DNA from: Actinomycetes bacterium
GTDB taxonomy: Bacteria > Actinomycetota > Acidimicrobiia > Acidimicrobiales > RAAP-2
DNA: 64,000 nucleotides
Assembly: GCA_021798955.1 (NCBI GenBank)
Contig: JAJZBK010000002.1
Location: forward strand, 15,650-79,649
Reading direction: 5' to 3'
A model generated the notes under the pieces. It made no database searches and was not told the origin of the DNA. It saw only the letters and a program-made list of their open reading frames with translations. Made by a program: the position numbers and the translations under genes. Positions within the stretch are counted from its first letter, which is position 1. Each line of letters begins with the position of its first letter. This document shows positions 7,487 through 25,970 of this stretch, piece after piece.

Positions 7487-8635
7487 ATGACGTTGTCGAA
7501 GCGCGGCGACTACGTGGTCCGCTCGGCGTTGGCCCTCGCCCGGGCGTGGCCGACCGGCGAGCCTCGCAAGATCCGCGAGGTCGTCGCCGAGATGGGCGTC
7601 CCCCAGACGTTCGCCTCCCAGATCCTCGCCGAGCTGGTCCGAGCCGGACTGGCCTCGTCCAAGGCCGGCAAGGACGGCGGGTACCGCTTGTCCCGAGCAC
7701 CGGAGGAGATCGCTCTCGTCGACGTGGTCGAGGCGGGCGAGGGGCCGTTGCGCGCCGAGCGGTGCGCGCTGGGCGACGGACCGTGCCGGTGGGACGAGGT
7801 GTGCCCGCTCCACGAGACGTGGCGGACGGCCACCGAGGCACTTCGCCAGGTGCTCGGCGCCACCACCCTCGCCGATCTCGCCCAGCGCGATCTCGACCTC
7901 GAGGCCGGACGAGCCTCACCGGTACCCGACTCGCACCGGCACGGTCCCGTCAGCATCGCCGTCGACGACTGGGTCCACGTCGAGGCAGGCATCGCCGCTC
8001 TGGGTGGCTGCATCGCCCGCGAGCAGATCGTCGGCCGAGCCGTCGAGGGTGCTTACGAAGAAGCCGATGCCCTTCGGGCCGGTCTCGACCCGGCGGGGAC
8101 ACCATGGTCGCCGCTGCACGCCCTGGCCAGCTGCGTCCCCCACCCCTCGGCCGACAACGACGGCGTGGTCCGGCCCACCGCGAAGAGCGCGAGCGGAGCA
8201 ACCGGAGCGGACGCCACGGACGGCGGCACAGCCGATGGGGCGGAGCCTGCGCTGCACTTCTCCCTCTCGTGGGAGGCGGCGAGCGGCGACGGCGTGACGT
8301 CCCACGCCGACGTCGAGCTGGTCGCCACGCCCGTCGACCCCGACCGGACCCAGCTCAAGGTGCACGGACGGCTCCGTCCGCCCGTCGCCTCGACGCCAGA
8401 GCCCGTCGACCCCGAGGTCGTCGAGCGCCTCGGCCAAGTCGTCATCCGGTCCCTGCTGCGCCGAATTGCCCGCGCCACAGAAGAGGCAGCCGTCTCGTCC
8501 CACGCCCCGACCAAGCCCCGCCGCTCCCGCTCGACGGCCAGATCAGGCTCGGCCAACGGGACGAAGAACGGCACTGGAGCGCGCCGAGGGCGGGCGACCA
8601 CCGAAGGCACCACTGCCGGGGCTGTCCGCGCCTGA
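7487..8635 (+). CDS. Rrf2-family transcriptional regulator with a roughly 230-aa C-terminal extension
   Basis: MTLSKRGDYVVRSALALA... is a winged-HTH of Rrf2 type. The cluster-ligand-like motif is CALGDGPCRWDEVCPLH (C-x6-C-x5-C-x2-H). The ORF then continues about 230 aa beyond normal Rrf2 length. Confidence 0.85.
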   Translation: MTLSKRGDYVVRSALALARAWPTGEPRKIREVVAEMGVPQTFASQILAELVRAGLASSKAGKDGGYRLSRAPEEIALVDVVEAGEGPLRAERCALGDGPCRWDEVCPLHETWRTATEALRQVLGATTLADLAQRDLDLEAGRASPVPDSHRHGPVSIAVDDWVHVEAGIAALGGCIAREQIVGRAVEGAYEEADALRAGLDPAGTPWSPLHALASCVPHPSADNDGVVRPTAKSASGATGADATDGGTADGAEPALHFSLSWEAASGDGVTSHADVELVATPVDPDRTQLKVHGRLRPPVASTPEPVDPEVVERLGQVVIRSLLRRIARATEEAAVSSHAPTKPRRSRSTARSGSANGTKNGTGARRGRATTEGTTAGAVRA

Positions 8636-8700
8636 CGGCACGGAACGGCGACGGGCCACCACAGCCGCGTCCTCGTCGCCACGCCCCGAGGGGGCATGTT

Positions 8701-8738
8701 GGCCGGCACGCTGACAGCCGGCCGGCACGCTGACAGAC
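8701..8738. repeat. 19-bp tandem duplication (ggccggcacgctgacag-cc/ac)
   Basis: Two adjacent copies with 1 mismatch, in the intergenic region downstream of the Rrf2 gene. Confidence 0.8.
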
Positions 8739-8983
8739 GCCGCTTCTGGCGGTCGGGGCGCCCTCGGTAGGCTGACCGTGGTCGACCGGGGAAGGGACCA
8801 GCAGCGATGGCAGACGACTGGAGTCCGCTCGGGCCACTGGCCGGCGAGTGGGCGGGCGACGTCGGGGTCGACTGCTCTACCGGACGCAGCACCCTGCACC
8901 GTGTCGACTGACCCGCCAACGGTCATCGCTCCCGCCACCGCTGCACCACAGCCCAGTGGGAGCCGAACCTCGAGGAGACGACG

Positions 8984-9826
8984 ATGAAACTGGCCAACCT
9001 GGCAGGCCGCGCAGCCCTCGTGGTCGGCGACCGCGCCATCGACCTCGCGACGGTCACCGACGGGGACCTGGGACCCGACGTCCAGCCCCTCTTCGCCCGC
9101 TGGCCCGAGGTCCAGGCCGTCGCCGCACGCCTCGGCGCCGACGACGGCCACCCCTTCGACCCGGCGCTCCTCGGACCGCCCGTGCCCCGTCCTGCCCAGG
9201 TGTTCGCCATCGGGCTCAACTACCGGGCCCACGCCGAGGAGTCGGGCATGGAGCTCCCCGAGGTGCCGGCCACCTTCACCAAGTTCCCGGCGTGCCTGAA
9301 CGGCCCCTTCGGGGATGTCGAGGTCCCCACCGACACCACCGACTGGGAGGTCGAGCTGGTGGTGGTCATCGGCGAGCTGGCCGATCGGATAGCCGAGGGC
9401 GCGGCGTGGGACCACGTCGCCGGGCTCACCGTCGGTCAAGATCTCTCCGAGCGAACCGTGCAGTTCGCCGCCGGGCGCCAATTCTCGTTGGGGAAGTCGT
9501 TCCGCGGGTTCGCTCCCATCGGCCCGTGGGTGGTCACCCCCGACGAGCTCGACAACCCCGACGACCTGGCCCTCGGCTGCTCCCTCAACGGCGAGACCGT
9601 CCAGTCGTCACGTACGAGCGACCTCGTCTTCACCGTTCCGCAGCTCATCGCCGAGCTGTCGGCCGTGGTGCCACTCCTGCCCGGCGACCTCGTCTTCACG
9701 GGCACGCCCGCCGGGATCGGGTCGGCCCGCACCCCGCCGCGCTACCTCCACCCCGGCGACGTGCTCGAGTCGTGGGTGGAAGGCATCGGCTCGATCCGCA
9801 ATACCATGGTCGCCGCCCGCCCCTGA
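8984..9826 (+). CDS. Fumarylacetoacetate hydrolase (FAH) family protein
   Basis: 280 aa with typical FAH-fold motifs (VFAIGLNYRAHAEE, DWEVELVVVIG, GDLVFTGTPAGIG). Confidence 0.9.
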   Translation: MKLANLAGRAALVVGDRAIDLATVTDGDLGPDVQPLFARWPEVQAVAARLGADDGHPFDPALLGPPVPRPAQVFAIGLNYRAHAEESGMELPEVPATFTKFPACLNGPFGDVEVPTDTTDWEVELVVVIGELADRIAEGAAWDHVAGLTVGQDLSERTVQFAAGRQFSLGKSFRGFAPIGPWVVTPDELDNPDDLALGCSLNGETVQSSRTSDLVFTVPQLIAELSAVVPLLPGDLVFTGTPAGIGSARTPPRYLHPGDVLESWVEGIGSIRNTMVAARP

Positions 9827-9926
9827 GCCCTCCCCTGGCGGTGCTCGCCGTCCCTCCACCGTCCCTGGCGGTGCCCGCCCGACACCGTTCGGGCCAGGCT
9901 GTGCCGGGCCGTACGGTGGACCGGTC

Positions 9927-9993
9927 TTACCCCAACAGGGCCTTGGCGATCACCACCAGCTGGACCTGGTTGGTGCCCTCGTAGATCTGGGTG
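9927..9993 (-). pseudogene. Orphan 3'-terminal fragment of an acyl-CoA dehydrogenase gene (displaced att-like copy)
   Basis: Encodes ...TQIYEGTNQVQLVVIAKALLG*, matching the C-terminus ...ITQIYEGTNQVQRVVIAKALLG* of the intact ACAD at 14147..15304. No ACAD body lies upstream of it. Confidence 0.7.
9941..9993. repeat. Left copy of a 53-bp direct repeat (att-like)
   Basis: ccttGgcgatcaccacCAgctggacctggttggtgccctcgtagatctgggtg matches 14161-14213 with 2 mismatches and a 35-bp perfect core. The offset is exactly 4220 bp. Confidence 0.85.
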
Positions 9994-10122
9994 TTCCTCG
10001 GCGGCCGTCCAGGGAACCGTCTCACGTGCGCTGACCTGCGCTGGTTCGGTTGGTCGTCCGGCCCTGCGTACCCGGTCGGCCCGGTTTGTAGGGATGGAGT
10101 AGGGATGCTCGGCACATCTCGC

Positions 10123-12105
10123 TCACCGGCCGAGTGACGAGCTGCGCCGCTTGAAGAGCGCCTTGCGGGCCGCCTTGGCCACCACCTTCGACGGGTGGAC
10201 CTGACCGATGACGGTCAGCACCAGGTCCGTCGCCGCCGACGGTGCCCGCCACAACCGGTCGATCACGGCGATCTGCCTGCCATGGTCGCCAACAATCTCC
10301 AAGGTAGGGACGAGGCCCTCGGGCCCGGCCGTCGCCATGCGATAGGCGAGCACGTCGACGAACGGGTTCGGATCCGACGGGTCGAAGAGGTCCACCTCGG
10401 CGGCCTGGCCATGGTCGACCAGCCAGCACAGGGCGAAGCCGCGGACAGTCGGTTCCGTGGCGAGCCGGCGCACATGAGGCGTTGCGACGTCGACGCCGAT
10501 CTCTCCCAGGACGGCCAATGCCAGGTTCTGCAGAGCGGGGTCGTCGAGCTCCAACACGGCGTCCGACATCTCGGAAGCGGCCTGTTCCGGCTGGCGCCGT
10601 TGGCGCCAGGCCATGATCTCCCCGTACACGGTCTGGAAGTCGTCCTTGTCGGTGCCGAGCAGCAGCTCGGCGGCGGTGGCATCGGCGAACCGTCCGGCCA
10701 CCGGCGTGTCGTAGCCGGCATCACCGAGGATCCGACGGACCGTCATCACCCCGGCCGGGGTCAGCTCGACCGTCCCACCGGAGCGGCGACGTCCGACTTC
10801 GGGCTGCTCGGTACCGTCACGGCGCACCACCCCGGCCAGCTCGAAGGCATACATGATGTCAACCACGTCGGTGAGGATGATCTGCTCCACCTGGTCGTCG
10901 GAAAGGCGGAATTCGAACGTGTCGAGCACAGCATTGGTGGCTGTCGCGCCTATGTCCTCGATCGGGACGGGGCCGTGCGCGGCGTAGGGAGCGATCAGGA
11001 GACGCACGCTCATCTGGTCCAGGAGCCGGTTGACCTCGGTCCAGGCGAACCAGCCGTCGGGGTCCCGCTGGGCCTGGAGCGGCCCCAAGGCCAGCAACCC
11101 ATCCACCGCCCGATCGAAGGACCCGACCGGGTCACGGCCCAGGGCCAAGCCACGCTTGGTGGCGACGACCTTGCCGTGGACGATCCGCAGGATGCCGGCC
11201 TTCTTAGCCCATGCGAACACAAGCGTGAGCCCGGGCAGTTCGGCGGCGCTCTTGGTCTTGAACGTCCGGTCGCCGACGGTCTCGTCCATCGCCTCGCCGG
11301 TACCGAGCAGATCGACCAGCACGCGGGCATCGGCCAGGGTGAGGTTACCCGTCTGGGTCAGCTTGCGGCCGCTCCCGACGAAGCCGGCGAGGTCCTCGAA
11401 CATCCGGAGGATCGGCGCGGCCACCTTGGACGCTGCGACCTCGTCGTCGCCGGGCAACGGTATCGGCGGGAGCCCCGGCCGGCGGGCCGGGCCAGAGAAG
11501 GCTGAGTCAGGGAGAATGCGGAACCGCTCCTCGTCCGGCTTGTCGTTGAAGCCGTTCATCCACTCCATGAGCTCGGCTGGGTCGCTGGCGTCGACACCTT
11601 CGTCGACCGCCGCGGCGAACAACGACTTGGCCATGCCGAACTTCGACCGGTCTCCCATGGCAGCCACGAACTCGTCGGTCAGGGTCGCGAGCAGGTCGAC
11701 GAGCTCGGCCGACGGTGACGAACCGACCCCGGCCAGTCCCTCGTCGTCGAGAAAGGTCAGAAAGGCGCCCAGCGCCGGCGGGATCGAGATGCAGGCCGCC
11801 TGGGTGACGCTCAGCTTTCGAGGGCACCACTCCAACAGGAATTCAGCCACGTCGTCGGGGACCCAGGTGGCCAGCCGGCCATCGGCGTAGCTCCACTTCC
11901 AGTCCAGTGCGACGCCGACATCGCCGGCGAGCTCACCGGCCCCGTCGTCCCCGACACCGATCGCACGGCTCGCCCACACGGCGAACCGGTCGAGCAGTAC
12001 CCCGCGGGCTTCCCGGAACGCGTCCTCGTCCTCGTGGTCGATATCGAGCTTCACGGCGCCGACCTTCTCACGGGTGCAACTCTCCCACGGGTGCAACTCT
12101 CCCAC
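10123..12105 (-). CDS. Hypothetical 660-aa protein (no recognisable catalytic motif; mostly helical by composition)
   Basis: Long ORF with coding-like codon bias, divergent from the AbiE pair. The start is ambiguous: GTG 12105 lies inside a 17-bp tandem repeat, while the in-frame GTG 12054 has a GAGAAGG SD-like element. Confidence 0.65.
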   Translation of the reverse strand: MGELHPWESCTREKVGAVKLDIDHEDEDAFREARGVLLDRFAVWASRAIGVGDDGAGELAGDVGVALDWKWSYADGRLATWVPDDVAEFLLEWCPRKLSVTQAACISIPPALGAFLTFLDDEGLAGVGSSPSAELVDLLATLTDEFVAAMGDRSKFGMAKSLFAAAVDEGVDASDPAELMEWMNGFNDKPDEERFRILPDSAFSGPARRPGLPPIPLPGDDEVAASKVAAPILRMFEDLAGFVGSGRKLTQTGNLTLADARVLVDLLGTGEAMDETVGDRTFKTKSAAELPGLTLVFAWAKKAGILRIVHGKVVATKRGLALGRDPVGSFDRAVDGLLALGPLQAQRDPDGWFAWTEVNRLLDQMSVRLLIAPYAAHGPVPIEDIGATATNAVLDTFEFRLSDDQVEQIILTDVVDIMYAFELAGVVRRDGTEQPEVGRRRSGGTVELTPAGVMTVRRILGDAGYDTPVAGRFADATAAELLLGTDKDDFQTVYGEIMAWRQRRQPEQAASEMSDAVLELDDPALQNLALAVLGEIGVDVATPHVRRLATEPTVRGFALCWLVDHGQAAEVDLFDPSDPNPFVDVLAYRMATAGPEGLVPTLEIVGDHGRQIAVIDRLWRAPSAATDLVLTVIGQVHPSKVVAKAARKALFKRRSSSLGR

Positions 12106-12110
12106 GGGTG
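12069..12110. repeat. 17-bp tandem repeat, about 2.5 copies (cacgggtgcaactctcc)
   Basis: Perfect copies at 12069-12085 and 12086-12102, then a partial copy at 12103-12110. The unit is not a multiple of 3 and sits at the 5' end or leader of the 660-aa gene. Confidence 0.85.
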
Positions 12111-12350
12111 GATGAACTCGAGCGTGGGGTGTTCGGCGAGCGCCTGCTGCTCCTCCTCGGCGTCACACGTGAAGAAGGTCGACCCCCGACGGTTTCGACC
12201 GGCTTCATGTCGTGTTCCAACCGACGTGCGACACCTGGTGAGCGACGTCGCTCTGGTTCCTCCCCAGCGGGTAGATCGGGTCGTCCGAGCCGACGTTATG
12301 TTTGCATACAGACCGCTCTTCCGTATTATTGTGACGTAATAGGTGCTCTG

Positions 12351-13130
12351 ATGAAAACACGACCGTTGCCCACCAGTCTGGCGCGGGTGGTCGAGGAGCT
12401 GGAGCTCCGGCAGCCCGCTGTGGTGACCCGGTCCCTCCTTCGGGAGATCTCGGCCGGCGCCGATCTCCGGCTGCCCGAGGACACCGTCGCTGAGCGCCTC
12501 GTCCGTTACGGCTGGCTGCTCCCACTGCGCCGCCGCGATGCTTGGGAGTTCGCTCCCGCCGCCAGGGCGGGCCGGTACCCGGCGGGCGATCCCTGGATCG
12601 AACTGCGCGCCCTGCTGGAGCACGAGCCCGACGCCCCGGTGGCCGTGGCGTTCGAGTCCGCCGTCTGGGAGCTGGGCCACGCCACCCACAAGCCGACCCG
12701 ACCGGTCCTCGCCCATCGACGCGGTTGGCGGCCACCTCGGTCCCTGGGCGCCAGGGCCGTCACGTTCGACTGGCGTCTGCCGACGCGCACGGTGAAGGGC
12801 CTGCCGGTGTGGGGTGAGCCGACCGTCGTGGTAGCGGCCGCGGAACGACCGACCGCGCAGGGCAATTGGGCCAACGCCGACGACTGGTTGTCGGAGACGT
12901 TCGGAGTGCTGGCGCCGGACGAGGTCTTGACCGAGGCGGCCGGCAGGAACGTCTCGACCCTGGCACGCCTGGGCTACCTCGCTGAATGGTCCGGCCGCGA
13001 CGACATCGCGGATGAGATCGAGGCCGTGCTCCCGAACCGGCTCCCCGTGACGTTCCTCGGCCCGCGGGAGCGACGTGACAGGTGGAGCCGCCGCTGGCGT
13101 GTGTACGACTCGCTCCTGCCGGCGCGATGA
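12351..13130 (+). CDS. AbiEi-like antitoxin (type IV TA / abortive infection)
   Basis: 259 aa from the ATG at 12351, after an AT-rich stretch (ccgtattattgtgacgtaatagg). Its stop overlaps the AbiEii start (ATGA). The assignment rests mainly on its position and size upstream of AbiEii. Confidence 0.55.
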   Translation: MKTRPLPTSLARVVEELELRQPAVVTRSLLREISAGADLRLPEDTVAERLVRYGWLLPLRRRDAWEFAPAARAGRYPAGDPWIELRALLEHEPDAPVAVAFESAVWELGHATHKPTRPVLAHRRGWRPPRSLGARAVTFDWRLPTRTVKGLPVWGEPTVVVAAAERPTAQGNWANADDWLSETFGVLAPDEVLTEAAGRNVSTLARLGYLAEWSGRDDIADEIEAVLPNRLPVTFLGPRERRDRWSRRWRVYDSLLPAR

Positions 13131-13996
13131 TCACCCAGGGCTACCTCTCGCGACACTTCCAGGGGAGGCGCGGGATGGCGGACGCGGCGTTGCTCGACGT
13201 CGCGCAGGACTACGTCCTGAAGTTCCTACACGAACAAGGGCTGTTCGACCTCGGCGCCGTCCTCAAGGGCGGGACGTCGCTGCGCAAGCTGCGCGCCGGA
13301 AACGCTGGCCGGTTCTCGACGGACCTCGACTTCGCGACACCCGACGTGGAGACGGGCGAGCTCCTGTTGGACACGATCGACGGCGCCGAGCTCTTCGATG
13401 TGCGCTTCAGACTCGCCGATCGTGAGGCACTGCGTGCCAAACTGGTGGTCGACACGCCGCTCGGTCAGCCGCAGATTCCCGCACGCATCGAGATCTCGCC
13501 CCGGCCGTTGTGGCTGCCGACCGAAGCGACAGCGCCCGTCACGCTCCCGGTTCATGCCGGGTATGAATTCACACCGCCGTCCATTCCTGCACCTGCTCTC
13601 GAGGAATCGCTGTCGGAGAAGCTGGCGGCATGGCGCAGACGGCGCAAGATCCGCGACCTCTACGACCTCGACCTGTTCGGTCACGGAAGCCTCGACGAGC
13701 CGTTGATCCGCCGCCTGCTCGTGCTCAAGGTCTGGCATGACGTCGTCGACGACGGCCTCGGCACGAGACCGTTCGATCCGAACGAGATCGTCGAGGGCAT
13801 CGAGATCCGCCGGCTGCCGGCGGAAGACATCGGGCTGCTCACGCAACCCGTTGACCCCGCGGCATGGCTCGCCCGCGTCCGAGTCCGGTACCGATTCGTC
13901 ACGGCGCTCGACGATGTCGAGATCGGCGTGGCCGCATGCGATCCGCGGGACCGCCATGCGGTGTCCCGGCTCGTCAGCGAGCTGCAAGGGCACTGA
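13127..13996 (+). CDS. Nucleotidyltransferase AbiEii/AbiGii-family toxin (DUF1814)
   Basis: The N-terminal motif DVAQDYVLKFL...LKGGTSLRKL...RFSTDLDF is characteristic of AbiEii. The ATG at 13127 overlaps the upstream stop. Confidence 0.8.
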   Translation: MITQGYLSRHFQGRRGMADAALLDVAQDYVLKFLHEQGLFDLGAVLKGGTSLRKLRAGNAGRFSTDLDFATPDVETGELLLDTIDGAELFDVRFRLADREALRAKLVVDTPLGQPQIPARIEISPRPLWLPTEATAPVTLPVHAGYEFTPPSIPAPALEESLSEKLAAWRRRRKIRDLYDLDLFGHGSLDEPLIRRLLVLKVWHDVVDDGLGTRPFDPNEIVEGIEIRRLPAEDIGLLTQPVDPAAWLARVRVRYRFVTALDDVEIGVAACDPRDRHAVSRLVSELQGH

Positions 13997-14146
13997 TCCC
14001 ACATCCGCGAGAGCGCTACGGATGCGATCGCCTGACGAGGCCTCACCCTCGGAGTCATGCCCACCTGCGTGGGACGACCCTTCCGGTGCAGCCCGTGAAG
14101 GCCCGCACCTCCCGTACGCCTGGGGGGCGGGCCCGGATGGCCGCCC

Positions 14147-15304
14147 CTACCCGAGCAGCGCCTTCGCGATCACCACCCGCTGGACCTGGTTGGTGCCCTC
14201 GTAGATCTGGGTGATCTTGGCGTCGCGCAGGAAGCGCTCGACGGGGAAGTCGGTCGTGTAGCCGTAGCCGCCGAGGAGCTGCACGGCGTCGGTGGTGACC
14301 GCCATGGCGGTGTCCGAGGCGACGCACTTGGCCATGGCCCCCACCATCGACAGGTCGCCGTCGGGGTCGCCGGCGTCCACCAAGGCGCACGCCCGGTAGA
14401 CGAGCCCTCGGGCAGCCTCGGTCCGCATGGCCATGTCGGCGACCATGAAGCGCAGGCCCTGCAGCTCGGCGATCGGCTTGCCGAACGCCTTGCGCTCCTT
14501 CAGGTAGCCCACCGCGTAGTCGATGGCCCCCTGGGCGATGCCGACGGCCTGAGCCCCGATGGTCGGCCGGCTCCGGTCGAGGGTGTGCATGGCGATCAGG
14601 AAGCCTTGGCCCTCCTCGCCGATGCGGTGGCTCGCCGGTACGCGCACATCCTCGAAGACGACCTCGCCCGTCGGGCTCCCTCGCAGCCCGAGCTTGTGCT
14701 CGAGCTTGGTCACCCGCACGCCCCAGTCCTTCTCGACGAGGAAGCAGCTGATGCCCCGATGGCCGGCCGAGGGGTCTGTCTTGGCGAAGACCGTGTAGGT
14801 GTCCGACACGCCGGCGTTGGTGATCCAGTACTTGGTGCCGTTGAGCACGTAGTCGTCCCCATCGCGCTCGGCCCGGCACCGCATGGCCGCCACGTCGCTA
14901 CCGGCGTCGGGCTCGGAGAGGCAGTAGCTGGCCTGGGACTGCCCGGAGGCGACTCGGGGCAGGTACGTGCGCTTGAGCTCCTCGGAGCCGAAGTTCATCA
15001 CCGGCAGCATGCCGAGCTTGGTGACGAGGAACGTCACCGACGTCGAGGCGCACACCCGGGCGAGCTCCTCGGCGGCGATGGCCTGGGTGACCATGTCGGC
15101 ACCGGCACCCCCGTACTCGGCCGGGAAGGCGAGGGCAGGCAGCTCCATTTCGGTGAGGGCCTTGTAGCTCTCCCAGGGGAACGCCTCGTCGCGGTCGACG
15201 GCGGCCGCGTGGGGGGCGATGCGTGCTTCAGCCATCTGACGCACGGCGTCACGGAACTGGCGGTGGGTATCGGAGAGCAGGAAGGCGGCGGAGTCCATCC
15301 CCAC
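14147..15304 (-). CDS. Acyl-CoA dehydrogenase (short/branched-chain type)
   Basis: 385 aa with canonical ACAD motifs (YCLSEPDAGSD, GGYGYTTDFPVERFLRDAKITQIYEGTNQVQ). Confidence 0.92.
   Translation of the reverse strand: MGMDSAAFLLSDTHRQFRDAVRQMAEARIAPHAAAVDRDEAFPWESYKALTEMELPALAFPAEYGGAGADMVTQAIAAEELARVCASTSVTFLVTKLGMLPVMNFGSEELKRTYLPRVASGQSQASYCLSEPDAGSDVAAMRCRAERDGDDYVLNGTKYWITNAGVSDTYTVFAKTDPSAGHRGISCFLVEKDWGVRVTKLEHKLGLRGSPTGEVVFEDVRVPASHRIGEEGQGFLIAMHTLDRSRPTIGAQAVGIAQGAIDYAVGYLKERKAFGKPIAELQGLRFMVADMAMRTEAARGLVYRACALVDAGDPDGDLSMVGAMAKCVASDTAMAVTTDAVQLLGGYGYTTDFPVERFLRDAKITQIYEGTNQVQRVVIAKALLG
14161..14213. repeat. Right copy of the 53-bp direct repeat (inside the intact ACAD 3' end)
   Basis: See 9941-9993. 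Confidence 0.85.
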
Positions 15305-15323
15305 AACCTACCCATCGGTCACC

Positions 15324-16067
15324 ATGCCGATGGTCCCTTCGCCCCGTGCGCCGCACGAACCTCCCTTCCGGGGTTTACTAGGGCCGATGGACGGGACCGG
15401 CCGACCCGATGATCGACGCCCCTTTCCGCCCCCGGCCAGCGGTGACCGTGGGCCCGTGGCCCGCCCCCGACCAACGGAGAGGAGACCTGCACGGCCCACC
15501 GCCGAGGACAGGTCGAGCCGGAGCGGGTTAGAACCGGCCTCCTCTCGTACCCTCGAGTCTCCGATCGGGACGCTCCTCCTCGTCGCCACCGCGGTCGGGC
15601 TGGTCCGGCTGGGCCTGCCGACCGAAGACCACGACGGCGTGCTCACCGACCTGGTCGGGAGGACGGGCCTCGCGCTGGACCAGGCCCCTCGCCTGCTCGA
15701 CCCGGCCGCCCGCGCCCTCGACGCCTACTTCACCGGCCGGAGCCGCACCGTCGATCTGCCGGTCGACCTGCGCCTCCTCCGTGGGTTCCGACGTGAGGTA
15801 GCGCGCTCGCTCACCACCATCGCCTACGGCACCACCCGGAGCTACGCCGCCGTAGCCGCTCGGCTCGGGCACCCCAAGGCGGCCAGGGCCGTCGGGACGG
15901 CGTGTGCGTCCAACCCCGTCCCGCTCGTCCTCCCCTGCCACCGGGTGGTACGGGCCGACGGCACCGTCGGCGGCTACCGGGGTGGCGCCGAGCTGAAGGC
16001 AGCACTGCTCGCCTTCGAGGCGGGTGGCGGGCGGCCCGAGCTCCTCACCGGCCATCCCCGGACCTGA
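15324..16067 (+). CDS. ogt: Methylated-DNA--protein-cysteine methyltransferase (Ogt/MGMT)
   Basis: Active-site motif LVLPCHRVV and the DNA-binding region TRSYAAVAARLGHPKAARAVGTACASNP. The N-terminal roughly 70 aa are low complexity, so the true start may be downstream (for example the ATG at 15387). Confidence 0.8.
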   Translation: MPMVPSPRAPHEPPFRGLLGPMDGTGRPDDRRPFPPPASGDRGPVARPRPTERRPARPTAEDRSSRSGLEPASSRTLESPIGTLLLVATAVGLVRLGLPTEDHDGVLTDLVGRTGLALDQAPRLLDPAARALDAYFTGRSRTVDLPVDLRLLRGFRREVARSLTTIAYGTTRSYAAVAARLGHPKAARAVGTACASNPVPLVLPCHRVVRADGTVGGYRGGAELKAALLAFEAGGGRPELLTGHPRT

Positions 16068-16140: not shown

Positions 16141-16737
16141 TCAGCCCGCCGCGGCAGCCGGCTCGGGCGATCCTCCCGCCGGCTCGGGCGATCCTCCCGC
16201 CGGCTGGGGCGATCCTCCAGCCAGGTCGTCGATGACGAGGAGGGAGCGCCACGCGCCGAGCTGCTGGGAGACCTCGTCGGCGGTGAGCCGGTAGGTCTCC
16301 GGGCGCACCCGGTCGCAGATGGCTCGCTGGACGCTGGTGTGGTGCGACGCCGAGCGGAAGAGGGGCACCCGGAAGGCGACCAGGTCGGCAGGCGCCCCGG
16401 GGAGGAAGCCCCACAACGCGGCACCAAAACGGAGGTCACCCAGCACCGGAGCCCGACCGAGCTCGGCCGCGTGGCGCATGGCCACGGCGGTGATGCCGGC
16501 CAGGACGTCGTGCAGGTGCTCACCCGGTTGCAGCTCGACCTCGCCCTCGAGGTAATGGGCCAGTTTGGCCGCGTAGCCGATATCCGGCCCGGGGCTGCCC
16601 ATCCGGCGGCCCTTCGGTTGGCTGGTCGAGCGAACTTCGGCAGGACGCGACTGCGTCCAGATGCGAGGGACGCTCAGCCGGTACGCCGGACGAACCTGGT
16701 CGGCTTCGACGATCGGGACGAAGTTGGGCTGGGTCAC
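16141..16737 (-). CDS. Hypothetical protein with C-terminal AGGSP(E/Q)P x3 repeat
   Basis: 198-aa ORF 15 nt downstream of cimA in the same operon. No motif was recognised. Confidence 0.55.
   Translation of the reverse strand: MTQPNFVPIVEADQVRPAYRLSVPRIWTQSRPAEVRSTSQPKGRRMGSPGPDIGYAAKLAHYLEGEVELQPGEHLHDVLAGITAVAMRHAAELGRAPVLGDLRFGAALWGFLPGAPADLVAFRVPLFRSASHHTSVQRAICDRVRPETYRLTADEVSQQLGAWRSLLVIDDLAGGSPQPAGGSPEPAGGSPEPAAAAG
16159..16221. repeat. 21-bp tandem repeat x3 (cggctcgggcgatcctcccgc)
   Basis: Two perfect copies plus a third with 2 mismatches. In frame, it encodes the C-terminal GGSPEPA repeats of the 16141..16737 product. Confidence 0.85.
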
Positions 16738-23951: not shown

Positions 23952-25970
23952 TCAGGCCGACGGGCCCTTGGCGATCTCAGCGAGGAACTCGTCGTTGCTC
24001 GCCGTGGTACGGATCTTGTCCATCAACAACTCGAGACCGGCGGCGGCACTCCCCTCGCTGGCCAGAGCGTTCAGCACCCGCCGGAGCTTCCACACCTGCT
24101 GGAGCTGGGACCGGTCGAAGAGGAGCTCCTCGTGCCGGGTCGAACTGGCGTTGACGTCGATGGACGGGTACAGGCGCCGCTCGGCCAGGCGGCGATCGAG
24201 CCTCAGCTCCATGTTGCCGGTGCCCTTGAACTCCTCGAAGATGACCTCGTCCATCTTCGAACCGGTCTCCACCAGGGCGGTGGCGAGGATGGTCAACGAC
24301 CCGCCCTCTTCGATGTTCCGAGCGGCACCGAAGAACTTCTTCGGTGGGTAGAGAGCACCAGAGTCGACACCACCGGACATGATCCGTCCGGTCGCCGGCT
24401 GGGCGAGGTTGTAGGCCCGGGCCAGGCGAGTGATGCCGTCGAGGATGATGATGACATCCCGGCCCAGCTCCACCAGCCGCTTGGCCCGCTCGATGGCGAG
24501 CTCCGCCACCGTCGTGTGCTCCTCGGAGGGCCGGTCGAAGGTGGAGGCGACCACCTCGCCTCGGACCGACCGGCGCATGTCGGTGACCTCCTCGGGCCGC
24601 TCGTCCACCAAGAGGACCATGAGGTGCACGTCGGGGTTGTTGGCCTCGATCGAGTGGGCGATCTGCTTCATGACGGTCGTCTTGCCGGCCTTCGGCGGCG
24701 ACACGATCAACCCCCGTTGACCCTTGCCGATGGGGGAGAGCAGGTCGACGATCCGGGCGGTCATGTTGTCCTTGTCGCCCGGCAGCTCGAGGCGGAGCTT
24801 CTCGTCGGGGAAGAGCGGGGTCAGCTCCTCGAAGCGAGGCCGGTTGCGGGCCGCCTCGGGATCGAGGCCCGCCACGGTGTCGATACGCAGCAAGGCCGGG
24901 TACTTCTCGCTGCTCCCCGCCGGACGGCACGCGCCCTCGACCACATCGCCGCGCCGCAGGGCGAACCGGCGGGCCTGGCTGATCGAGACGTAGACGTCCT
25001 TGGCCGAAGGCAGGTAGCCGTCGCAGCGCAGGAAGCCGTAGCCCTCGTCGCGGAGGTCGAGGAACCCCCGGACCGGGATGAGGTCGCCCTGGTACTGGTC
25101 AGCCTGTCCGGCGTCCTGCAGGTCACGTTCTCCGCCACCTTGACGGTCCCGTCCCCGACGACGTCGGTTCCCTCGGCGGTTGCCCGCGTCGTCGGGCAGG
25201 CTCGACTGGCCACCCTGACGGTTGCCCTGGTTGCCCTGGTTGCGGCCAGCCTGGCCCTGGCCACCCTGACGGTTGCCCTGGTTGCGGCCAGCCTGGCCGG
25301 TGCCGTTCTGGCCGGTGCCGTTCTGGCCGGTGCCGTTCTGGCCGGTGCCGTTCTGGCCGGTGCCGTTCTGGCCGGTGCCGTTCTGGCGATTGCCGGTGCC
25401 AGCGTGGCGAGGTCCCGGAGGAGAGCTGACCCCCGCGCCCCCGGTGTCGGACGTGGCGGTGGACCCTCCCGCCGTCCCGCCAGCAGACCGGGCCTCCTCG
25501 GCGCGCACCTCGTCCTCGGGGTCGAAGACGAAGACGGCGGGCGGCTTCGCCGTCCGAGCTGGCTCGGACCCGTTGGGGGGCGCTCCGTCGACGACCGAGG
25601 CCGCGGACCCGTTGGGGGGCGCTCCGTCGACGACCGAGGCCGCGGACCCGTTGGAGGGCGCTCCGTCGACGACCGAGGCCGCGGACCCGTTGGAGGGCGC
25701 TCCGTCGACGACCGAGGCCGAGCTGCCTGCGACGGAACCGTCGGCCTGCTCGGCCGGTGCCTTGGCCTTCCTGCCGTTGGCACGTGGGCTGTGGACGGTC
25801 TCCGGTGCCTCGCCGAGCTCGACGCCCGTCGCCCGCAGGATGCCGTCGATCATGTCGGCCTTCTTCGTCCGGGTCGTGGTCTTGACCGAAAGCGCCTGGG
25901 CGATGGCCAGGAGCTCGTCGCGCTCCTTGCGTTCCAGTACCGAGCGCTCGAGCTGCTGTTCCGCAGTCAT
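23952..25970 (-). CDS. rho: Transcription termination factor Rho with a long repetitive N-terminal insertion
   Basis: The C-terminal two-thirds is canonical Rho (RNA-binding CSD, Walker [11 protein letters not shown] loops). The N-terminal insert of about 260 aa is rich in G/N/Q/R/S and contains repeats. Confidence 0.95.
25294..25386. repeat. 15-bp perfect tandem repeat x6 inside rho (encodes NGTGQ x6)
   Basis: ctggccggtgccgtt occurs as six perfect copies. Confidence 0.9.
25566..25722. repeat. 39-bp tandem repeat x4 inside rho (encodes [10 protein letters not shown](P/S)NG x4)
   Basis: Four near-perfect copies of 39 bp, differing at one or two positions. Confidence 0.9.

Follow-up and report, generated by a model that had tools for sequence, protein, structure and literature searches.

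Positions 9914-14216 of a 64-kb stretch of contig JAJZBK010000002.1 (all 64,000 nt of which are referred to here as the window), from an uncultured Acidimicrobiales lineage, raise a question of origin. How did an AbiE gene pair and a large protein of no annotated family, here called F643, come to lie between an acyl-CoA dehydrogenase (ACAD) gene and a displaced copy of the 3' end of that same gene? A first-pass annotation, made from the letters alone, read the segment as a single 4.22-kb insertion without a recombinase. From comparison with related loci (designated L001, L002 and so on) we consider it highly probable that the segment is a decayed composite island, made by a tyrosine integrase recombining attP with the last ~66 nt of the ACAD gene. 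It consists of two tandem elements fused by deletion, rather than one insertion.

A duplicated ACAD gene end bounds the island

A repeat search of positions 8000-16000 gives a single outstanding direct repeat, 9914-9996 and 14134-14216 (83 nt, 86% identity, 4,220 nt spacing), within which lies the 53-bp repeat with a 35-bp core described in the first-pass annotation. The 35-nt core is perfect, and at three or fewer mismatches it is present in exactly two copies in the window and in none in 100 shuffles. The left copy runs through the stop of a 62-aa open reading frame (ORF; 9927-10115, minus strand) with the C-terminus ...IYEGTNQVQLVVIAKALLG, of which the last 19 residues are the ACAD end with one residue different; the right copy runs through the stop of the intact 385-aa ACAD, so that homology does extend through both stop codons as first proposed. 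Gene and displaced copy begin to match at the identical base (CACCCAGATCTACGAGGG...) in the window, L006, L014 and L016, and cease to match just past the stop codon. The repeat is a genuine duplication of an att site, left behind when an element integrated site-specifically at the 3' end of ACAD; Table 1 lists the coordinates of its parts. The G+C content of the island is the same as that of its surroundings.

The polarity of the two copies can be read from the sequence that follows them. A signature, TAGGGTTT..., follows the gene-attached tail or a tandem junction in L006, L014, L016, L090 and L013, and terminal displaced tails are without it. Its restriction to gene-attached tails and tandem junctions fits attL = B-O-P' and attR = P-O-B', such that the attR tail would be the original chromosomal one (B') and the attL tail would have arrived with the element (P').

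Preceding the displaced copy is an element arm, the P arm. The ~135 nt ahead of the displaced copy are conserved in 13 genomes and contain a ATCCCTACnnnATCCCTAC pair, the box CAGGTCAGCGCA and the block GCTGGACCCC; in the window the pair is at 10088-10106 (plus strand, GTAGGGATGGAGTAGGGAT) and the box at 10027-10038. The paired ATCCCTAC sites occur as a pair once in the 64-kb window, where none is expected. The same motif pair is found in the P arm of all 13 aligned displaced tails (degenerate in L014). It also lies in the P' arm, upstream of the integrase gene that is intact in L090 and L089 and, with two or fewer mismatches allowed, upstream of the integrase pseudogene or remnant of L013 and L010. 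Both att arms are seen in L013, L010 and L090, and the window keeps only the repeats of the P arm, which are putative arm-type sites.

Is the left copy instead what remains of a duplicated ACAD paralogue, with the intervening genes native? In a tblastn search the alignment with ACAD does reach further, covering residues 319-385 at 43% identity, but only the final 21 residues account for the extension. When the 126 nt upstream of the left copy are compared with ACAD as DNA or in each of three frames, their scores do not exceed those of shuffled sequence. That upstream sequence is conserved as an att arm, its box is also present in an element at a tRNA-Lys gene (see below), and empty sites exist. 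Insertion survives this check, and a paralogue origin is extremely improbable.

A second adjacent direct-repeat pair lies in the P arm (alignment columns ~40-65, window ~10060-10085), and its two copies change together across lineages: ACTCAGCGAA twice, ACTCAACGAA twice or ACTCAGCGGA twice, and ACCGGGCCG / ACCGGGTACG in the window. Such a co-varying pair behaves as protein-binding sites would, and suggests a co-evolving binding protein. No structured RNA is evident in the arm, with no Rfam match in 8500-15500; RNAalifold on 12 arms finds a single compensated pair, and its covariation term is -0.27.

Two further observations concern the tails. L014 carries a third partial copy of the ACAD tail (13099-13126; 28 nt, identical) between F643 and the far displaced tail, which again points to nested or tandem integration. 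That the two tails of each genome evolve in concert was considered and rejected, with 5-6 differences within genomes versus 3-15 between genomes.

Table 1. Coordinates of the island, its flanking genes and its att sites, and positions of integrase copies or remnants at related loci
Feature	Location	Strand	Basis or remark
Fumarylacetoacetate-hydrolase-family gene (FAH), chromosomal flank past the island	8984..9826	+	Pfam FAA_hydrolase, E = 7e-64
attR, displaced ACAD 3' end	9914..9996	-	Core 9959-9993, 10 further codons, stop 9927-9929, 13 nt beyond
Element arm (P arm)	9997..10122	-	Between F643 stop and left repeat; conserved block by block in 13 genomes
F643, 643-aa conserved protein (first annotated as a 660-aa orphan; long ORF to 12105)	10123..12054	-	Divergent from AbiE
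Perfect 17-nt tandem repeat, 2.5 copies	12069..12110	.	Directly upstream of F643 start; single copy in L001
3'-end remnant of 151-aa gene	12100..12150	-	41/51 nt match L001 2885-2935; gene intact in L001, in operon with F643
AbiEi antitoxin / transcriptional regulator	12351..13130	+	Pfam AbiEi_1, E = 2.3e-6, above gathering score; PADLOC AbiEi, E = 1e-4
AbiEii nucleotidyltransferase toxin	13127..13996	+	PADLOC AbiEii, E = 8.7e-81, full profile; Pfam AbiEii, E = 1.8e-21
Tyrosine integrase pseudogene remnant, first ~40 codons, frameshifted	14029..14144	-	Directly after ACAD stop
attL, core plus tail now on the ACAD gene	14134..14216	-	Core 14179-14213; repeat and cross-genome comparison
ACAD, intact target, 385 aa	14147..15304	-	Pfam Acyl-CoA_dh_N/M/1
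Integrase copy/remnant in L013	After P arm/core/tail junction		Frameshifted
Integrase copy/remnant in L010, L037	Between tail and F643		
Integrase copy/remnant in L022	Upstream of F643		
Integrase copy/remnant in L100	After ACAD gene		
Integrase copy/remnant in L007	After tRNA-Lys; upstream of F643		

Empty and occupied sites in related genomes

The ACAD gene belongs to a conserved block of a LeuA-like gene, a small gene and ACAD, and its orthologues (73-79% identity) have the same upstream synteny. An exact look-up of the window ACAD sequence gave no record, perhaps owing to its GTG start. A tblastn search with it shows a recurring order at F643 loci, in which the LeuA-like gene, small gene and ACAD are followed by variable genes, F643 and the displaced ACAD tail, sometimes with an MntA-like/HEPN-like pair between F643 and the tail. 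In the window the FAH gene converges on the displaced tail, and L001, L002 and L008 have the same flank.

Relatives with a single core site are available for comparison. In L091 the ACAD stop is followed by the palindrome TAGAACAGGTTCTA and then by the start of a thiolase gene, with one core and no F643; L093 and L088 have a similar, nearly direct succession of ACAD, operator and thiolase, again with one core and no F643, and empty loci in metagenomes continue from ACAD into a thiolase/enoyl-CoA-hydratase block. L006 is occupied, with a 10.7-kb F643 island between ACAD and the displaced tail, after which come the same TAGAACAGGTTCTA palindrome and thiolase gene. Because palindrome and thiolase follow the displaced tail in L006 and ACAD itself in L091, the whole island, including F643, is an insertion. 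Integration into the ACAD 3' end, proposed in the first-pass annotation, is borne out by these empty and occupied sites and by the shared boundary described above.

The TAGAACAGGTTCTA palindrome is present upstream of the thiolase gene in three genomes (L091 ~6360, L006 ~13300 and L048 ~12050) and is probably the operator of a regulator of fatty-acid degradation. L048 is a further rearranged version of the site (7685-12133), in which an SLFN_AlbA_2 / HATPase_c_4 protein is at the ACAD position and F643 abuts the thiolase operator without an arm or tail.

Tyrosine integrase genes are also found just downstream of distant ACAD paralogues (57-58% identity) in L118 (5634-6545) and L120 (3181-3768), and integration may repeatedly target the conserved QIYEGTNQ-coding end of ACAD genes. 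It is common for metagenome contigs with an ACAD orthologue to end 25-520 nt past the ACAD stop (L085, L087, L089, L092, L094), and those with one F643 allele (L167-L174) all end ~750 nt past F643; it seems that the assemblies broke either at the repeated tail or at a site that varies between strains.

An integrase and its remnant

A candidate for the responsible enzyme is seen at L090, in which an 87-nt arm with ATCCCTACTTTATCCCTAC adjoins the end of the ACAD gene and leads into the gene for a 388-aa protein matching Pfam Phage_integrase (E = 2.6e-20) and Phage_int_SAM_3. L089 has the same arrangement of arm and intact tyrosine integrase after ACAD, as far as the contig reaches; an HTH_17 excisionase-like gene alongside the integrase is present in L090 only.

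The window retains the beginning of such a gene. The L090 integrase matches the window by tblastn at residues 2-23 (73% identity, 14144-14079) and, in another frame, at residues 23-40 (56%), with a local score of 48-49 versus 19 ± 3 for shuffled sequences, a score reached by 0 of 1,000 shuffles. In a three-way DNA alignment the window passes from GGGTAGG directly into integrase codon 2, such that the ~87-nt integrase-side (P') arm of L090 and L013 is missing. The earlier statement that no recombinase lies between the repeats is correct for intact genes, but a ~115-nt remnant of a tyrosine integrase N-terminus is present. Elsewhere in the window there is no integrase of the L090 family. Related loci carry integrase copies or remnants in several positions (Table 1).

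An integron cassette array was also considered and rejected: the integrase reaches 48.9 bits where the integron-integrase model has a cutoff of 265, and the repeats, with their long arms, duplicate the 3' end of a gene.

Two elements in tandem, joined through deletion

The composite nature of the island is seen by comparison with L001 (GCA_027396735.1), which is 99.4% identical to the window over 12 kb and has an additional 2.7 kb between AbiEi and F643. The extra stretch carries an Xre-type gene, a decayed but complete junction of P arm, core and tail (715-910) and, next to F643, tightly packed genes of 273 aa (TIGR04255 family), 182 aa and 151 aa. In the window, 133 unrelated nt (12151-12283) replace L001 208-2884 (2,677 nt). 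The internal junction and the three extra genes of L001 identify the window as a deletion derivative of two tandem elements, and since the AbiE and F643 modules each end in their own P arm, they were formerly separate. The notion of a single 4.22-kb insertion is abandoned accordingly; the first-pass alternative that the segment is the remnant of something larger is favoured, both by the integrase remnant at the ACAD stop and by the lost parts visible in this near-identical strain.

A plausible history begins with an older element in which F643 lay beside its P arm, with three more genes ahead of F643 as in the sister strain. A younger element with an integrase, AbiEii, AbiEi and an Xre-like gene would then have entered the regenerated site beside ACAD. 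Each integration would join the ACAD body to the gene end borne by the element, such that the gene stays intact, and would move the original end to the far side of the element. Deletions would subsequently have removed most of the integrase gene and the adjacent arm, the internal junction, the Xre-like gene and the three extra genes, leaving AbiE beside F643 between two tail copies, with F643 kept by selection as the long-term cargo of the element family.

The copy of the island in the window is most likely immobile. The first-pass annotation had considered mobilization in trans, but with the integrase-side arm of attL gone this copy is unlikely to be moved in that way. A related possibility is that the island is still an active cis-mobilizable element, which has lost its own integrase and is moved by an L090-family enzyme whose gene lies at another genomic locus. 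The attR core and P arm are intact, L090-family integrases are intact in related communities (L090, L089), and the conservation of displaced tails and arms far exceeds that expected of neutral sequence at the divergence of F643 (dS about 1); the frequent assembly breaks just past ACAD or ~750 nt past F643 would fit population heterogeneity at the site. However, attL in the window is without the entire P' arm and its arm-type sites, the window has no second locus with an L090-family integrase, the attR core is decaying in L002 and gone in L008 (F643 being intact in both), and the internal junction of L001 is itself decayed. We regard continued activity of the island as unlikely.

Several points weigh against the decayed composite island as we have described it. 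For the window's own lineage no empty junction of ACAD and FAH was found, and the empty sites come from relatives in which ACAD is only 73-75% identical and the flank is the thiolase gene; the expectation of relatives with a single core is borne out for the latter flank but not for the former. The integrase remnant is short (tblastn E = 0.014), and with so short a match its weight comes from its exact position and from the DNA alignment. An intact integrase of the ACAD type (the int90 family), F643 and both repeats were not found together on any one contig; L027 does combine an intact integrase, F643 and both repeats, but at a tRNA-Phe gene and with an integrase of a different att system. Displaced tails and P arms are kept across genomes better than neutral decay allows, which calls either for a recent origin from active elements or for sites that are still in use. 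It is the model, rather than direct observation, that tells which element entered first and which of the tails is original, and integration and excision are read from att anatomy in every member.

F643, the conserved cargo

F643 is the largest component of the island and its part worth attention. As its homologues are 643 aa long, its start is most likely the GTG at 12052-12054, and the 17-nt tandem repeat upstream creates a spurious 17-codon N-terminal extension in the 660-aa ORF. Far from being an orphan, as first described, it has at least 351 full-length homologues (53-98% identity), mostly in Acidimicrobiales metagenome-assembled genomes, and a profile search gives 3,099 clusters at 50% identity (E ≤ 1e-3), 577 of them with E ≤ 1e-30; among the best 150 clusters most are full length, at 610-680 residues. 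Genome matches are in Acidimicrobiia, Streptosporangiaceae, Pseudonocardiaceae, Mycobacterium and the cultured strain Actinomycetospora cinnamomea DSM 45771 (L066), and some assemblies have two copies (L025/L051, L035/L043 and two in L068). It was not found among GenBank phages or in IMG/VR. A phage link through the arm motif was pursued and discarded, the 16 IMG/VR matches being chance ones on unrelated contigs (33-65% GC) with no ACAD, integrase or core.

Known families provide little guide to its function. F643 has no match in Pfam, NCBIfam, PADLOC or PHROGs and none in a profile search of PDB, and a relaxed Pfam search on 43 members gave nothing consistent; a literature search found nothing on the family. 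The AlphaFold model (mean predicted local distance difference test score, pLDDT, of 90) is all-helical, with several helix/beta-hairpin modules resembling winged helices and a HEAT-like C-terminal part, and Foldseek against PDB and BFVD returns only generic helical repeats (E ≥ 0.1). The PADLOC and structure searches proposed in the first-pass annotation thus recognize the neighbours of F643 (through PADLOC) but give neither a family nor a fold for F643 itself.

The gene is under purifying selection, with dN/dS of 0.25-0.31 in five comparisons, 0.41 versus L007 and 0.55 versus the near-identical L001. Residues ~190-450 align at 24-32% identity with Streptomyces plasmid proteins (NZ_CP108436, NZ_CP108308; pairwise BLASTP E = 1e-21), which share only this central region. 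The two are encoded on linear plasmids (L165 6184-7428 and L166 1258-3855). One is a "plasmid pRiA4b ORF-3 family protein" in which the region is fused to a PRiA4_ORF3 domain (E = 2.5e-31) that is missing from F643; the other, of 865 aa, adjoins a RelE/Phd pair at a linear-plasmid end.

Might F643 itself be a new kind of site-specific recombinase that integrates these elements? It is the sole large gene common to small repeat-flanked segments at three targets (4.2 kb in the window, 3.9 kb at tRNA-Lys in L007 and 3.8 kb in L026), it adjoins the att arm, and its predicted winged-helix modules resemble DNA-binding ones. Against this, its confident all-helical model contains no recombinase fold, and neither fold nor profile of a tyrosine or serine recombinase, a DDE/RNase-H or an HUH enzyme is detected in Pfam, NCBIfam, PDB sequences or Foldseek. 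Canonical tyrosine integrases or their remnants lie beside F643 in the window, L007, L010, L013, L022, L026 and L027; the arm repeats adjoin a canonical integrase in L090, with no F643 in the 4 kb at hand; and the AbiE element, which has no F643 gene itself, nonetheless carries a P arm of this type. A recombinase role for F643 is very improbable, and integration by a tyrosine integrase is preferred.

Our best guess is that F643 is a DNA-binding protein that would serve defence, exclusion or element maintenance. More tentatively, it could found a new functional class, either a single-gene defence or exclusion system or a DNA-binding stabilizer or regulator of islands, acting for example at the co-varying arm repeats. 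Such a role is compatible with its being intact amid decaying integrases and att sites, with multi-copy genomes and with exchange faster than ACAD divergence.

F643 islands at other loci

F643 is a conserved hallmark of integrase islands across Actinomycetota, retained by selection both in minimal elements made up of an integrase and F643 and in toxin-antitoxin islands. Its neighbours are mostly toxin-antitoxin or candidate defence genes, including AbiE, the MntA-like/HEPN-like pair (PADLOC PDC-M05A/B), RES and MazF, as well as TacA, Phd, Gp49/HTH, SNIPE/T5orf172, SLFN-AlbA_2 and, weakly, PADLOC PDC-M32A. That the 4.2-kb content would not be found throughout the lineage is correct for the AbiE part, which is variable, but not for F643 and its att arm, which recur across the order.

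Other targets are also used. In L007, F643 lies between repeats of the 3' 49 nt of tRNA-Lys(CTT) in a 3.9-kb segment with an integrase remnant and a small gene, and the arm at this tRNA includes the same CAGGTCAGCGCA box. In L027 it lies between repeats of the 3' 47 nt of tRNA-Phe, with an intact integrase, an excisionase and different arm repeats. L026 and L028 contain repeat-bounded cassettes with TacA, MazF and RES modules. In four Streptosporangiaceae loci F643 is beside tRNA-Arg, where no displaced tRNA fragment was found, and integration there is therefore not demonstrated.

The cassettes of L028 (344-11777) and L026 (866-4716) are small and are parted by repeats of 160-285 nt that start with GTGGGCCGCCCGGGTCTCGATCCCGG and stand at five places in L028. 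They hold a TacA-like antitoxin, F643, MazF, Xre-RES and an ISL3-like gene, and in L026 a tyrosine integrase lies just ahead of the first repeat copy, with no tRNA detected there.

Signs of movement are seen in comparisons between loci. In L011, F643 and its arm are 97% identical to the window, and the homology ends inside the tail at 9940, beyond which the flank is different. Relative to L002, the flank of the window is 92.8% identical and F643 85.7%, and synonymous divergence is 0.31 for F643 versus 0.14 for FAH. Among L006, L014 and L016 the identities are 85-87% for F643 and 78-82% for ACAD; relative to the window they are 62-64% and 73-79%. An identical F643 protein on many contigs (P0015) was set aside as evidence of mobility, all copies being from one population and in one context.

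The AbiE pair

As first annotated, an ATGA-coupled AbiEi/AbiEii pair lies between the repeats, divergent from the large ORF; Pfam and PADLOC matches (Table 1) and the overlap of the AbiEi stop with the AbiEii start at 13127-13130 agree with this. The AbiEii translation carries GGTS and DLD motifs, and by family membership the pair would be a type IV toxin-antitoxin or abortive-infection module. Like other members of the AbiE family (PF08843, PF09407), it is a two-gene overlapping operon with a DUF1814-type AbiEii carrying GG[ST] and DxD motifs and an AbiEi with a C-terminal antitoxin domain; nothing in it is unusual, and the AbiEi profile match is weak.

In L056 (6946-10142) an AbiEii/AbiEi pair 60% identical to that of the window lies divergently just upstream of an F643 homologue (48% identity), with no arm motif between them. 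The pairing could represent a repeated association or a shared older arrangement.

Relation to known islands

The island is of a kind already known, in which integration at a gene 3' end is followed by tandem accretion and decay. The streptococcal ICESt1/ICESt3-type islands are cis-mobilizable elements that accrete in tandem at one att site; like the window, they involve successive integrations into a gene 3' end, internal att junctions between modules and loss of the recombination module, leaving a segment flanked by attL and attR without an integrase. The window differs in its Acidimicrobiales host, its ACAD target and its lack of conjugation or mobilization genes, and because its attL has also lost an arm, mobilization in cis is doubtful, unlike that of the streptococcal islands. 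The ssrA-specific islands of Dehalococcoides likewise form arrays in which small islands, differing from strain to strain, occupy the 3' end of a single conserved gene and are each enclosed by a direct repeat of that end, but their target is a transfer-messenger RNA (tmRNA) gene and their cargo reductive dehalogenases, whereas that of the window is toxin-antitoxin or candidate defence genes and F643. Actinomycete integrative and conjugative elements (AICEs) of the pSAM2 and pMEA types share with these elements Actinomycetota hosts, a tyrosine integrase and excisionase, 3'-end integration with the end regenerated and arm-type repeats in attP. However, no RepSA, RepAM or Prim-Pol replication genes or TraB-type transfer genes are seen in the elements described here, which are only about 3-12 kb, and F643 matches no AICE family.

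The island documents this kind in a poorly studied, uncultured Acidimicrobiales lineage and at an unusual protein-coding target; no published case of integration into an acyl-CoA dehydrogenase gene turned up in a literature search. The island also provides this lineage with a defined att site (core and arm repeats) and a cognate integrase. F643 has several thousand clusters, a confident but unmatched structure and no match in the annotation libraries searched; it keeps the company of toxin-antitoxin and candidate defence genes and outlives the mobility machinery. It is therefore a candidate for defence and island-maintenance screens in Actinomycetota, and the A. cinnamomea homologue is in a strain that is in culture.

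Other features of the window

Among other features of the window, we note that ARAGORN calls an 81-nt tRNA-Gln(CTG) at 25316-25396 that the Rfam tRNA model does not report at its gathering score; this may be a false call or an unusual tRNA. Beside the LeuA-like gene, a 198-aa gene contains a 21-nt tandem repeat (16157-16222; 3.1 copies, 95% matches) that codes for PAGGSPE units.

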